A stretch of DNA of 64,000 nucleotides from an uncultured Alphaproteobacteria bacterium (GCA_949292205.1 CASEYR010000001.1:155530-219529); one strand, 5' to 3'. Shown: positions 10,137 to 17,084, counted from the first letter of the stretch. The notes: generated from the sequence alone by a model not told the origin. Translations and numbers: made by a program.

Positions 10137-11522
10137 ATGTCAGAAAACAAGGGGAAAATCGTTGCAATTAACGGAAGTGTTGTTGAGGTATCATTTGATA
10201 AAAAACTGCCTTCCATGTTTAATGCTTTGACAACCGGCGATAATAACGGATTAGTTTTGGAAACACAAGGGTATATCGATGAACATACCGTTCGCGCTTT
10301 GGCTATGGGGGGAACTCAGGGATTATCTCGTGGCATGGCCGTTACGGATTTGGGACACCCAATTGAAGTTCCTGTCGGTGATAAAACGTTGGGACGAATG
10401 TTTAACGTATTCGGACAAACCATTGATGGAAAAGAAGAAATAAAAAATCCAGAGCTGAAATCAATCCATGCAGAGCCTGTTTCTATGGATAAATTGGAGG
10501 TTTCGTCTCAAATTTTTGTCAGCGGTATTAAGGCCATTGATTTGCTGGCTCCGATGGAACGGGGCGGAAAAGCAGGCCTTTTCGGAGGTGCCGGCGTCGG
10601 AAAAACCGTTTTGATTACCGAAATGATTAATAACATGGTTGGCCGTTATGAAGGGGTTAGCATCTTTGCCGGTATCGGAGAACGCTCTCGTGAAGGAGAA
10701 CAACTGTATCGTGAAATGCAAGATGCCGGTGTTCTAAATAAAACGGTGATGATTTTCGGACAAATGAACGAAGCCCCTGGCGTTCGTTTTCGGGTGGCTT
10801 TATCCGCTTTGACGATGGCCGAGTATTTTCGTGATGAGAAAAAGCAAGATGTTCTCTTACTGATAGACAACATCTTTCGCTTTATTCAAGCCGGTTCCGA
10901 GGTTTCCGTTCTATTGGGGCAAATTCCTTCTCGTGTGGGATATCAGCCCTCTCTGGGAACGGATATTGCCGATTTGGAGGAACGTATTTCAAGCACAAAA
11001 GATGGCGCAATTACCTCTATTCAGGCTGTTTATGTGCCGGCTGATGATTTTACGGATCCTTCGGCAACGCATACGTTTGCTCACCTGTCTTCAACGATTG
11101 TCTTGTCTCGTTCACGAGCAGCTCAAGGTCTTTATCCGGCGTTGGATCCGCTTAACTCTAGCTCAAATATGTTGACGCCTCTGATTGTCGGAGAAAGGCA
11201 CTATAAAGTTGCAACCGAAGTTCGCAAAACACTGGCTCAATACGAAGACTTAAAAGATATTATTGCTATGTTGGGATTTGATGAACTCCCAGAACACGAT
11301 CAACAGACTGTTCTAACGGCAAGAAAGCTGGAACGCTTTTTAACCCAACCGTTCTTTACAACAATGCAATTTACGGGTATGGAAGGAAAATCGGTTAACT
11401 TGGAAGATACCATTTCGGGCTGTGAGCGCATTTTGTCCGGAGAATTTAATGATTTAACGGAAAATGACTTTTACATGATCGGAACGGTTGATGAAGCAAG
11501 AAAGAAAGGGAAAAAGGCCTAA
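10137..11522 (+). CDS. atpD: ATP synthase F1 beta subunit (first gene of N-type ATPase operon)
   Basis: P-loop [11 protein letters not shown]; full-length beta. Confidence 0.95.
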
Positions 11523-11939
11523 TTGATGGAAATGCGGCTAAAGGTTTATTCGCCCGTCGGGGTTATCTTGGAAACACCTGTGACTCAAGTCGATTTTGAG
11601 TCAATAGACGGTTTTTATACCTTACTCCACCGTCATATGGATATGGTTTCCGCTCTAAAGCCGAGTATTTTATCTTATAAAACGAATGGTAATCAACTTT
11701 ATATTGCTTGTAATCAGGGGGTCTTAGTTAAAAAGGGAGAAGATGTTTCCGTATCTACAAAATTGGCTATTATGGGAACGGATTTAAAACAGCTGCAAAA
11801 GACAATAGAAGTTGACTTCAAGGAAATGGAACAGCAGAGAAAAGAAGCCAACCTTACGATGGCTCGATTAGAAATCGGGTTAACAAAAGGGCTAATGGCT
11901 TTAAACAAAAATAATGGAGGCAGTGATGGCGGAATTTGA
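11523..11939 (+). CDS. atpC: ATP synthase epsilon subunit
   Basis: Size and position immediately after beta; start abuts beta stop. Confidence 0.65.
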   Translation: MMEMRLKVYSPVGVILETPVTQVDFESIDGFYTLLHRHMDMVSALKPSILSYKTNGNQLYIACNQGVLVKKGEDVSVSTKLAIMGTDLKQLQKTIEVDFKEMEQQRKEANLTMARLEIGLTKGLMALNKNNGGSDGGI

Positions 11940-12273
11940 TGAAGAAAACCGAAAAACAGCCACTATTTTAATCAACAAGGCTAAGGCTATGGAGCATCGT
12001 CAATCTCGTCTTCTATTTTTTAATGCCGCCTTGTTGGGGGTTTACGGATGGCAGTTGTCCATACCTGTCTTATTAGGCGTAGCTATCGGTCAATTTTTAG
12101 ATAGAATCTTCCCCTCCTCTGTTTTTTCATGGACTCTCAATTTCATTTTTGTCGGTTTTGTTGTGGGTATCTTTAATGCTAATCGGTGGCTTCATAAAGA
12201 GGGAACGGTTCAAATTATTAAAAAGAGATACCGTCAACAATTGGCAGAACAACGTCAACGGAGTAAAAAATGA
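11914..12273 (+). CDS. N-ATPase-associated small membrane protein (AtpQ-like)
   Basis: Two hydrophobic helices; position between epsilon and a subunit as in N-ATPase operons; alternative start at 11926 has a GGAGG RBS. Confidence 0.5.
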   Translation: MEAVMAEFDEENRKTATILINKAKAMEHRQSRLLFFNAALLGVYGWQLSIPVLLGVAIGQFLDRIFPSSVFSWTLNFIFVGFVVGIFNANRWLHKEGTVQIIKKRYRQQLAEQRQRSKK

Positions 12274-14644: not shown

Positions 14645-14655
14645 GAGAGGCGAAT

Positions 14656-16182
14656 ATGTTACACAAAGCGTCTAGGGAAGCAGAACAGGCAATTAAAGAG
14701 GCTATTCAAAAAACGCCTTTGGATTTAAAAGTATCCGAAACAAGTTCAATCATATCTATCTCGGCCGGAACAGCGGAAGTTTCGGGCCTTTCAAAGGTTC
14801 AAATGAACGAGTTGTTGACCTTTAAAGATAACACAATCGGTATGGTTCAAACCTTAATGCAGGACAGAGTCGGTGTCGTCTTTTTGACGAATGCCGATCA
14901 CTTAAAAGCCGGTGATAAAGCCAAACGAACGCATCGCGTGTTAGATGTTCCTGTCGGAGATGCTCTGTTGGGACGTGTCATCAACCCATTGGGACAGCCC
15001 TTGGATAATAAAGGCGCCATTCCGACAACGCAAACTTATCCGATTGAACGAGAATCTCCTCCGATTATGCATCGTGCTCCGGTGGATACACCGTTACAAA
15101 CGGGACTGAAAGCGATTGATTCTTTTACGCCCATCGGACGCGGACAACGTGAATTGATTTTAGGTGACAGACAAACCGGAAAAACAGCTATTGCTTTGGA
15201 TACAATGATTAACCAAAAAGAATCCGGTGTTATCTGTGTCTACTGCGCTATCGGTCAACGCGCTGCAGGAACGGCTCGTGTTATTGCCGACTTGGAAAAA
15301 TACGGCGTCATGGAAAACACAATCGTTGTTGTTGCCTCGGGTGATGATGAAGCCGGCATGCAATTTATTGCTCCCTATGCGGCAACTTCTATCGGCGAAT
15401 ATTTTATGGAAAAAGGAAAAGATGTCTTAATTGTTTATGATGATTTGACGGCTCATGCCAGAGCTTATCGCCAAATGTCCTTGCTATTGAGAACACCTCC
15501 GGGACGAGAGGCTTTTCCGGGAGATATCTTCTATATTCACTCTCGACTCTTGGAACGGTCAACACACTTACGTCCGGAGTTCGGTGGTGGTTCCCTCACC
15601 TCTTTGCCGATTGTGTCAACCGAGGCTGGAAATATATCCGCCTATATTCCGACAAACATTATTTCTATTACCGACGGACAAATCTATCTGTCGACTTCTT
15701 TATTCCAAAAGGGGATTCTGCCGGCTATTGATACGGGACGTTCCGTTTCTCGTGTCGGTGGTGATGCTCAATTACCGGCTTATCGGAGTTTGGTCGGTCC
15801 ATTAAAATTGTTTTTCTCACAGTTTGAGGAGTTAGAGTCCTTTGCAAAATTCGGGACCCAAATGGATCCTGAAACGGCCGGACGGTTAAAACGCGGAAAA
15901 GCTATTCGGGCCGTTATGCAACAAATACAATATGCTCCTTTACCAGCTGCCGACCAAATCGCTGTCTTTTTGGCTACGAATGAGGGATTGTTGGATGATG
16001 TAGATGAACGTCAAAGTGCTTTGGCTCAGAAAATTATCATCCATGTTTTACATTCCAAATTCCCTAAGGTTATCACCAGTATCGTTGATAAAAGAGAAAA
16101 ATTATCAAATGATATAAAACAAAAGCTGTTAGATGCTTTCCGAAAAGCCTTGGCAAATGAAAAAGGATTAAAAACAGAATGA
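14656..16182 (+). CDS. atpA: ATP synthase F1 alpha subunit
   Basis: P-loop GDRQTGKT. Confidence 0.95.
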   Translation: MLHKASREAEQAIKEAIQKTPLDLKVSETSSIISISAGTAEVSGLSKVQMNELLTFKDNTIGMVQTLMQDRVGVVFLTNADHLKAGDKAKRTHRVLDVPVGDALLGRVINPLGQPLDNKGAIPTTQTYPIERESPPIMHRAPVDTPLQTGLKAIDSFTPIGRGQRELILGDRQTGKTAIALDTMINQKESGVICVYCAIGQRAAGTARVIADLEKYGVMENTIVVVASGDDEAGMQFIAPYAATSIGEYFMEKGKDVLIVYDDLTAHARAYRQMSLLLRTPPGREAFPGDIFYIHSRLLERSTHLRPEFGGGSLTSLPIVSTEAGNISAYIPTNIISITDGQIYLSTSLFQKGILPAIDTGRSVSRVGGDAQLPAYRSLVGPLKLFFSQFEELESFAKFGTQMDPETAGRLKRGKAIRAVMQQIQYAPLPAADQIAVFLATNEGLLDDVDERQSALAQKIIIHVLHSKFPKVITSIVDKREKLSNDIKQKLLDAFRKALANEKGLKTE

Positions 16183-17084
16183 CTCTGGAAGCTTTAAATA
16201 AACGTATCAAAACAACAACGGATTTACGTGACATTGTCAGTACAATGAAAATGCTCTCGTCCGTTAGTGTCGGGCAATACGAAAAAGCTCTTGCCTCTTT
16301 AAATGAATATGGGGCAACGGTTCGAAAAGCTTTCCAAGGTTTATTAAAAGATGACTCCTTTATCTATACACCTAAAAACATTAAAACAAATCGCCCTAAA
16401 ACAATTGCGGTGATTATCGGAACAGATAATGGTCTTGTCGGACGATTTAACAGAGATGTCCTAACTTTTGCAAAACGCAGTTTAAAAGAACGAAATTGCC
16501 TAGAGGAAACAGTAGCTATATGTGTCGGAAAACGTATCGGTTTAATGGTACAATCAGCCAAAATGTCCGTTGCGACAACGTATCCGATTATGAACTCGTT
16601 AAAAGAAATAGCTTCAATCGCCTCTATGGTTTTGATTAAGTTGAATGAGATAATCACTAAACAACGAATTGATCAAGTATTGGTTTATTACACTTATCGT
16701 TCGACCGGAGAACAGCAACATGTTGTCGTTAGACAGCTAATGCCTTTGCCGGCCGATGATTTAATTGACTTGAAAAAGGAAAAATGGGATGGACGAACAC
16801 TCCCCTTAATTACGGGTGACAGAGAGGCTTTGTTTTCAGCCTTAAGTCATGAGTATTTGACCGTTATTTTGGCTCATGCCTTAACCGCTTCTTTGGCTGC
16901 AGAACATTATACGCGTATGGTGAATATGCAACAGGCAGAAAAAAATATTGATGAATCCTTGGAAAATATGAATTTAGAGTATCAACAATTACGACAAACG
17001 AATATTACCGATGAATTAATTGATATTGTATCCGGGGCCGAAAGTATGAAAAAAAAGAAAATAAATCTAAATAACCCTTTATAA
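16179..17084 (+). CDS. atpG: ATP synthase gamma subunit
   Basis: Gamma-like N-terminus (LRDIVSTMKMLSSVSV), operon position, start overlaps alpha stop. Confidence 0.7.
   Translation: MTLEALNKRIKTTTDLRDIVSTMKMLSSVSVGQYEKALASLNEYGATVRKAFQGLLKDDSFIYTPKNIKTNRPKTIAVIIGTDNGLVGRFNRDVLTFAKRSLKERNCLEETVAICVGKRIGLMVQSAKMSVATTYPIMNSLKEIASIASMVLIKLNEIITKQRIDQVLVYYTYRSTGEQQHVVVRQLMPLPADDLIDLKKEKWDGRTLPLITGDREALFSALSHEYLTVILAHALTASLAAEHYTRMVNMQQAEKNIDESLENMNLEYQQLRQTNITDELIDIVSGAESMKKKKINLNNPL

Follow-up and report, generated by a model that had tools for sequence, protein, structure and literature searches.

The window analyzed here comprises 64,000 nucleotides from an uncultured Alphaproteobacteria bacterium (GCA_949292205.1, CASEYR010000001.1:155530-219529) and carries, on its plus strand at positions 10137-17084, an operon encoding an N-type rotary ATPase (N-ATPase). 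ORF calling shows that this span is exactly filled by nine intact, co-oriented open reading frames (ORFs), and Pfam and NCBIfam models gave one family match per gene (best E value 1e-224), in the order atpD-atpC-atpQ-atpR-atpB-atpE-atpF-atpA-atpG. A complete N-type gene order at this place had been claimed by the original prediction and is recovered here gene by gene. The features are listed below with the matches that identify them.

10137..11522, + strand: atpD, N-type F1 beta subunit, 461 residues; TIGR03305 (alt_F1F0 beta) 744 bits versus 658 for the canonical TIGR01039
11526..11939 (alternative TTG start 11523), + strand: atpC, epsilon subunit, 137 residues; PF02823 and TIGR03166
11926..12273 (alternative ATG start 11914), + strand: atpQ, small protein of the AtpZ/'gene 1' family with two transmembrane (TM) helices, 115 residues; PF09527 and TIGR02230
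12270..12674, + strand: atpR, the N-ATPase hallmark subunit, 134 residues; PF12966
12671..13561, + strand: atpB, stator subunit a, 296 residues; TIGR03306 and NF004481
13580..13858, + strand: atpE, rotor subunit c, 92 residues; gap-free alignment to 3ZK1 and 1YCE
13871..14644, + strand: atpF, long peripheral-stalk subunit b with one N-terminal TM helix, 257 residues; TIGR03321
14656..16182, + strand: atpA, N-type F1 alpha subunit, 508 residues; TIGR03324 713 bits versus 622 for the canonical TIGR00962
16179..17084, + strand: atpG, gamma subunit (central stalk), 301 residues; TIGR03323 222 bits versus 129 for the canonical TIGR01146; PF00231 over its full length

Four of the neighboring pairs overlap (by 14, 4, 4, and 4 nt), the remaining gaps measure 3-18 nt, and a purine-rich ribosome-binding site lies upstream of every one of the nine starts. 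Independently assembled contigs of identical sequence carry gene calls that match this layout except for two starts: these calls place that of atpC at ATG 11526 and not at TTG 11523, and that of atpQ at ATG 11926 and not at ATG 11914. The catalytic motifs are intact in beta (P-loop GGAGVGKT, residues 150-157; GERSREG, 181-187) and in alpha (GDRQTGKT, 170-177; the Arg finger R366 within SVSRVGG), and subunit a has its stator Arg, R231 (13361-13363), inside FRLYGN. ORF calls and Pfam searches found no ORF for a delta/OSCP subunit (atpH) in or near the operon. Promoter- and terminator-like sites around the operon are no more common than in shuffled sequence, which leaves the boundaries of the transcription unit undefined; tyrS, the atp genes, hup, and accD could be cotranscribed as one unit. 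The nine-gene pattern itself is confirmed as real, chance being excluded.

The N-ATPases were defined by Dibrova, Galperin and Mulkidjanian (2010; PMC2881411) by the order atpDCQRBEFAG, by AtpQ, and by the tell-tale AtpR, a protein with about three TM helices and a conserved buried Arg in two of them. According to the same work, these enzymes lack delta and have an unusually long b subunit whose end aligns with delta, their subunits cluster apart from those of the F-type, and their c subunit has a Glu in both helices, usually within ESTxxY. They are described there as second copies beside a canonical enzyme, laterally transferred, patchy in distribution, and plasmid-borne or strain-specific. 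The window operon has the same order, AtpQ, an AtpR with two Arg residues, no delta, a long b ending in a delta-like region, separately clustering subunits, and a c subunit with two Glu residues and ESTxxY, so that the predicted N-type identity stands.

Profile scores agree with this assignment. The N-type NCBIfam models, among them the 'alternate F1F0 ATPase' exception models TIGR03305/03324/03323/03306/03322/03321, outscore the canonical ones for seven of the seven core subunits, by 39-126 bits. Besides beta, alpha, and gamma (see the list above), this holds for epsilon (TIGR03166 112 bits, over its cutoff of 100, versus 40 for TIGR01216), subunit a (TIGR03306 altF1_A 248 bits and NF004481 255 bits, the latter over its cutoff, versus 122 for TIGR01131), subunit c (124 versus 47 bits), and subunit b (TIGR03321 139 bits versus 33 for the canonical TIGR01144). 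The best annotated alpha matches in a plasmid collection (54-58% identity) are all named 'alternate F1F0 ATPase, F1 subunit alpha', canonical alphas being 44-50% identical; A. marina pREB4 and PCC 7002 pAQ7, both of them plasmid operons named in PMC2881411, are among these 'alternate' matches. For beta, identity is 59-63% to the reference N-type sequences versus 52-55% to canonical ones. The gene order of the window is identical in all nine reference N-type operons, which come from Cyanobacteria, Alpha-, Beta-, and Gammaproteobacteria, and Bacteroidota.

We built neighbor-joining trees with bootstrap support from a small panel of 20 taxa, including the nine N-type operons and five canonical controls: an alpha tree rooted with the beta paralogs, a beta tree rooted with the alphas, and a tree of concatenated alpha, beta, and gamma. 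The outgroups were drawn from the plasmid collection; word-indexed alpha and c searches gave only clade members among the best 120, and representatives of 50%-identity clusters were unfit for the alpha tree, with N- and F-type alphas merged and many odd fusions. In the alpha tree the canonical F clade, which takes in the alphaproteobacterial Paracoccus and Sinorhizobium, has 98% support and the window falls outside it. The beta tree unites the N-types and the gut clade to which the window belongs with 94% support, and the concatenated tree gives 100% for the F clade and 97% for the N-types plus the gut clade. The gut sequences form a long-stemmed lineage of their own with 100% support, nested in no sampled N-type subgroup. 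The phylogeny thus keeps the operon out of the canonical F clade, as expected for an N-type enzyme, and the refuting outcome named with the prediction, a position within canonical F-type clades, did not appear.

Three results weigh against a plain N-type assignment. Six of the 'alternate' models stay under their curated cutoffs (beta 744 versus 752, alpha 713 versus 750.5, gamma 222 versus 282, a 248 versus 302, c 124 versus 131, and b 139 versus 225), those of the set being passed only by epsilon (TIGR03166) and AtpQ (TIGR02230). AtpR scores 41 bits on TIGR03165, under the cutoff of 55.5. In the alpha tree alone, monophyly of all N-types is weak (25%). The scores under the cutoffs indicate that the gut clade is a divergent branch, and they also explain why PGAP names its members plainly 'F0F1 ATP synthase'. 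PGAP gives the name 'alternate' to alpha alone even where an operon is a bona fide N-type one, with AtpR named 'ATP synthase subunit I' and b named 'subunit delta', so N-ATPases are probably under-counted by annotation-based surveys. The window operon is a divergent, gut-associated branch of the already known N-ATPase family.

The accessory and stalk subunits fit this placement. AtpR matches PF12966 with 53.3 bits (E value 4e-14; gathering score 26) and is predicted to have three TM helices, with R55 (12432-12434) in TM2 and R85 (12522-12524) in TM3; both Arg residues are invariant in eight of eight sequences, the window and seven relatives. A search of the PDB up to an E value of 10 returned no relative of AtpR, so there is no complete N-type structure with AtpR to serve as a template. 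AtpQ, conserved in the relatives, scores 45.6 bits on PF09527 and 65.9 on TIGR02230, over the cutoff of 46.7; its two predicted hydrophobic helices belong to the PF09527 family, as in N-ATPases, rather than to AtpI (PF03899). The C-terminal tails of both proteins are rich in lysine and arginine and vary in length among the relatives. In the sheep-rumen metagenome-assembled genome (MAG) JAFYHG01 (L004, 13373-13882), a spacer of about 0.5 kb, possibly an insertion, separates atpQ from atpR, genes that overlap or adjoin in the other relatives.

Residues 168-246 of subunit b match the delta-subunit model NF004402 (E value 3e-4), and in four reference N-type operons it is the ortholog of this long b that PGAP calls 'subunit delta'. 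Subunit a begins with a lineage-specific N-terminal extension, residues 1-88 (12671-12934), the family profile starting at residue 82. One or more additional TM helices are predicted there, with a strong one at residues 17-35; the extension is kept in the four closest relatives L003-L006 (283-318 residues) and absent from L007 and L016 (230-231 residues) and from most reference N-type a subunits. Another extended case is the N-type operon of Methylocystis rosea pGW6_1 (L078, 4369-5889), whose annotated subunit a has 506 residues, about twice the usual length.

The last region of interest is the ion-binding site of subunit c, for which a full Na+ ligand set had been predicted from the strings GLGEGNAA and VESTAIY. 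Both are present: the first carries E30 (codon 13667-13669), the second E63-S64-T65 (13766-13774) and Y68 (13781-13783), and M61 is encoded at 13760-13762. In a gap-free HMMER alignment with the F. nucleatum c subunit (3ZK1), M61, E63, S64, T65, and Y68 fall on V63, E65, S66, T67, and Y70, and E30 falls exactly on E32, so the helix-1 Glu, on whose placement the prediction hung, occupies the Na+-site position. The same mapping is obtained with the I. tartaricus c subunit. In F. nucleatum, Na+ is coordinated by the side chains of E65, E32, and S66, by the carbonyl of V63, and by a water molecule that T67 keeps in place, and Y70 forms a hydrogen bond with E65; E32 retains its proton at all times, Na+ is the sole ion carried across, and ATP is made on the sodium-motive force (PMC3692424).

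In a set of 120 c subunits from the clade, all of them 71% or more identical, E30, E63, and Y68 are each found in 120, and S64 in 118, the other two having Thr. T65 is found in 114 and lost in six. The combination of the helix-1 Glu with ES(T)xxY is shared by the window, five gut relatives (L007 being exceptional in having Cys at position 65), both cyanobacterial references, Polymorphobacter, Hymenobacter, and Roseicitreum. Among N-type enzymes, that of Aphanothece is Na+-coupled, as summarized by Schulz (2017). The B. pseudomallei ring, the single N-type one with a structural study, is a c17, H+-selective ring with the site E30/E61-T62-M63..Y66, in which Met replaces the Thr ligand (PMC5376962). 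This ETMxxY type, also found in Methylocystis, B. pyrrocinia, and A. oryzae, is a separate N-type subgroup in our trees (96-100% support). Helix 1 of the window c subunit has the complete series G23xG25xG27xG29xG31, like the c11 Na+ rings, at a place where most N-type references have GPA. Since the Gly motif is variable inside the clade (GPALGEG in L004), we draw no conclusion on ring size. A 137-residue 'F0F1 ATP synthase subunit C' (P0193) from a Chondromyces MAG is oddly long; compared with the c subunit of the window it scores 158 bits, yet its best BLASTP segment is 38% identical.

The evolutionary history of the operon was read from its neighborhood. At least nine related MAG loci (L003-L008 and L015-L017) share the context accC-accB-tyrS-[atp]-hup-accD-2-hydroxyacid dehydrogenase, and atp identity falls together with that of tyrS (atpD 96, 90, 85, and 80% at tyrS 92, 77, 68, and 64%). 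In six further relatives (L009-L014) the context of tyrS is another one, and the flanks examined (up to 10 kb) contain no atp genes. One syntenic contig, L007 (CAYPVK010000003.1; protein P0188), is labeled 'uncultured Lactobacillales bacterium', yet it shows the alphaproteobacterial accCB-tyrS-N-atp-hup-accD synteny with 68-85% identity to the window proteins, and the label is probably wrong. The composition of the operon is close to that of its surroundings: GC content is 0.408 versus 0.388 in the rest of the window, GC at third codon positions is 0.359 versus 0.343 +/- 0.038 for the host, and the operon-window tetranucleotide correlation is 0.965, other 7-kb segments giving 0.949-0.981.

Against the nearest relative, the nine genes, atpQ and atpR included, have nonsynonymous divergence (pN) values of 0.014-0.15 at a synonymous divergence (pS) of about 0.7, which is saturated; pN is comparable in the flanking genes (accC 0.012, tyrS 0.054, accD 0.027). 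Close homologues of alpha and c fall into more than 120 distinct 90%-identity clusters. Synteny, codivergence with tyrS, and host-like composition together argue that the operon is no recent acquisition, and from the sequences we infer that it is a functional, long-resident, vertically inherited core locus of a gut/rumen Alphaproteobacteria lineage, kept under strong purifying selection. The idea of an acquired Na+ pump, raised by the original prediction, is therefore not borne out as a recent event; a transfer in the distant past, into the lineage's ancestor, is possible. A literature search on gut and rumen N-ATPases, and on the ATP synthase of this gut lineage, returned nothing relevant.

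The GC content of the window (39%), the tyrS matches, and a gene for GcrA, an alphaproteobacterial cell-cycle regulator, bear out the low-GC alphaproteobacterial origin that had been proposed. The best tyrS relatives (55-92% identical) belong to MAGs of uncultured Alphaproteobacteria from the rumen and from animal and human gut, the top match being 92% identical. A 474-residue protein resembling the [FeFe]-hydrogenase large subunit, with 4Fe-4S domains, is encoded at 5411-6835 on the minus strand, adjoining accC and 3 kb upstream of the operon, which suggests an anaerobic, H2-evolving lifestyle. The host is probably an anaerobic, fermentative gut or rumen alphaproteobacterium, and it may belong to the GTDB order RF32.

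Taken together, these observations make it probable that the operon encodes a complete, functional Na+-coupled N1No ATPase, vertically inherited as a core locus, whose most likely role is ATP-driven Na+ export. In the proposed mechanism, ATP hydrolysis on alpha3beta3 would turn gamma-epsilon and the c-ring, gamma and epsilon serving as the central stalk and the long b, with its fused delta-like end, as the peripheral stalk. Na+ would enter through the cytoplasmic half-channel of subunit a, be bound between adjacent c subunits, travel round with the ring, and be released outside once R231 engages E63. The predicted Na+ site consists of E63, S64, the backbone carbonyl of M61, T65 (via a water), Y68, and the second carboxylate of E30. 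By analogy with the c11 ring of F. nucleatum, E30 would stay protonated and Na+ alone would be transported. AtpQ and AtpR are accessory membrane proteins that may assist c-ring assembly, a hypothesis from the literature; the two Arg residues of AtpR may pair there with the two Glu residues of the c subunit (PMC2881411).

Gut and rumen fluid is rich in Na+. In such a habitat, ATP-driven export would hold down the Na+ level of the cytoplasm and supply transport with a sodium-motive force, and it is the most economical reading for a hydrogenase-bearing, probably fermentative gut anaerobe. Two considerations temper it. Such a machine should be able to run both ways, its working direction is a matter of inference, and sequence cannot tell a pump from a synthase. 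In addition, Na+ export by the window enzyme, as by its close relatives, is read from the sequence.

Among the alternative explanations, an ordinary F-type ATP synthase with merely rearranged genes would agree with the plain PGAP names of the clade members ('F0F1 ATP synthase subunit ...') and with their scores under the 'alternate' cutoffs. Bona fide N-type operons receive the same plain names for most subunits, however, and AtpR, the missing delta, the long b, the better fit of each subunit to the N-type models (39-126 bits), the position outside the F clade, and an order other than atp(I)BEFHAGDC refute this explanation, to which we give next to no probability. A recently acquired mobile island, that is, a laterally transferred second copy, would be in keeping with the many plasmid-borne or strain-specific N-ATPase operons, and the window does carry an integrase and a reverse transcriptase elsewhere, about 20-30 kb off the operon. 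Nevertheless, mobility genes, repeats, and tRNA are all missing from the operon borders, the context is kept, with the operon diverging in step with tyrS, in the nine or more MAG loci, the composition is host-like, and the gut clade, with its own long stem, sits in no sampled donor group; such an island is very improbable. H+ coupling, as in an N-type ATPase serving pH homeostasis, has to be taken more seriously, although we still consider it unlikely. The enzyme of B. pseudomallei was predicted to use Na+ and was measured to be H+-selective (PMC5376962), a precedent that counts against our assignment, as does the loss of T65 in some clade members. A second carboxylate raises H+ affinity and, in the summary given in PMC3692424, M. 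acetivorans reportedly uses both ions; moreover, Na+ enzymes can move H+ at low Na+ (PMC2881411). However, the Thr by which the Na+-coordinating water is held is missing from the B. pseudomallei site, which belongs to a separate subgroup, whereas the window has the whole E/ESTxxY set of proven Na+ rings, and Na+ is abundant in the presumed habitat. Na+ coupling is thus the best-supported prediction for the window enzyme, and a likely one.

The main competitor of the Na+ export reading keeps the ion and turns the direction: the N-type machine would be the primary, possibly the only, rotary ATPase of its host, a Na+-driven ATP synthase fed by Na+ pumps encoded elsewhere in the genome, for instance Rnf or Na+-decarboxylases, as in Fusobacterium, Ilyobacter, and Propionigenium. 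This synthase role is a live alternative because identical rotor chemistry works toward synthesis in F. nucleatum, whose two-carboxylate Na+ site is the same and serves ATP synthesis driven by sodium-motive force (PMC3692424). The operon behaves like a core locus, syntenic in a housekeeping context down to 64% TyrRS identity, as constrained as accC, tyrS, and accD, and represented by the more than 120 clusters of close alpha and c homologues, which raises the possibility of a sole rotary ATPase. Other atp genes, V-type genes, and obvious Na+ pumps were not found within the 64-kb window, and the full GxGxGxGxG of helix 1 recalls the c11 Na+ rings. That Gly motif varies in the clade, however, and all N-ATPases so far examined occur alongside a canonical F- or A-type enzyme (PMC2881411), a statement still repeated in 2022 literature and the basis of both the name N-ATPase and the presumed pump-only role (PMC2881411). 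Deletion of the N-type operon of M. acetivorans left growth and ATP synthesis unaffected, according to the account in PMC2881411. We therefore regard the primary synthase as possible and on the doubtful side, and hold the same tentative view of the N-ATPase being the sole rotary ATPase of these organisms; ATP-driven Na+ export by a vertically inherited N-ATPase remains the preferred reading.

Some other features of the window were recorded. A XerC/D-like tyrosine recombinase, within 45609-46619 on the minus strand, adjoins priA. As Sinorhizobium has the arrangement priA-atpHAGDC, a relic of a canonical operon 3' of priA was considered and rejected, the 180-residue ORF after the window priA having no similarity to OSCP; the priA-atp adjacency is absent in Paracoccus, so this neighborhood carries no weight. 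The interval 49118-53521 (minus strand) encodes one set of a MacB-type ABC permease, an ABC ATPase, an HlyD-family adaptor, and a TolC-like outer-membrane efflux protein. At 38820-42310 (plus strand), a 500-residue ORF without Pfam matches, with an internal 74-nt repeat (39868-39941 and 40057-40130, 74% identical), is followed by a bAvd-like gene at 40312-40710 (PF22296, 34 bits, short of its cutoff, 40) and by a gene for a reverse transcriptase at 40943-42310 (RVT_1). This layout resembles a diversity-generating retroelement, but comparison of the upstream ORF with the avd-reverse transcriptase spacer and with the region after the reverse transcriptase revealed no template/variable repeat pair.

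N-ATPases have been described as laterally mobile pumps for Na+ or H+ that play an accessory part in marine, halotolerant, or pathogenic bacteria, and the gut clade shows a different pattern. It adds the animal gut to the habitats of the family and points to a sodium-based bioenergetics in a gut lineage about which little is known. The clade is large (more than 120 sequence clusters) and is not flagged 'alternate' in the PGAP names seen, and its genomes are a concrete set for testing the rule that N-ATPases are always second and cannot synthesize ATP. If the enzyme were the sole or primary Na+-coupled ATPase, the 'always second, never synthase' rule would be overturned, and a non-canonical rotary enzyme coupled to Na+ would sustain the membrane energetics of an alphaproteobacterial lineage. 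If it were merely a second copy, the result would be a routine annotation refinement.

The closest known systems are the cyanobacterial N-ATPases (A. marina pREB4, Picosynechococcus PCC 7002 pAQ7, and the Na+-ATPase of Aphanothece halophytica), which lie closest to the window among the tree references (alpha 55-57%, beta 60-63%, and c 62% identical) and share with it the gene order, the lack of delta, the long b, and the combination of E and ESTxxY. Nevertheless, these are plasmid-borne second copies of aerobic, halotolerant phototrophs, whereas the window operon is chromosomal and syntenic in anaerobic gut/rumen Alphaproteobacteria, forms a separate clade under the curated cutoffs, and has the extension of about 88 residues in subunit a and a long basic tail in AtpR. 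More generally, the usual distribution of N-ATPases is patchy, plasmid-borne or strain-specific, unlike that of this vertically inherited core locus. The N-type ATPase of B. pseudomallei shares the operon architecture, AtpR, and the helix-1 Glu E30 (PMC5376962) and differs in its H+-selective E-T-M..Y site without the Ser/Thr pair; it groups with Methylocystis, B. pyrrocinia, and A. oryzae, and the window alpha is 46-49% identical to this ETMxxY subgroup.

The Na+ F-type synthases of F. nucleatum (3ZK1), I. tartaricus (1YCE), and A. woodii (4BEM) have the same Na+ ligand set and the GxGxGxGxG motif and come from anaerobic hosts, the F. nucleatum site being identical to that of the window, second carboxylate included. 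They differ in the order atpIBEFHAGDC with delta, in having no AtpR, and in belonging to the F clade, so the likeness is one of mechanism and not of family; the window rotor most probably works like these Na+ F-type rings. The F1Fo enzymes of Paracoccus and Sinorhizobium have homologous subunits and the same catalytic motifs as the window, but their alpha is 45% identical, their genes are split into atpHAGDC and atpIBEFF', delta is present, and they fall in the other clade.

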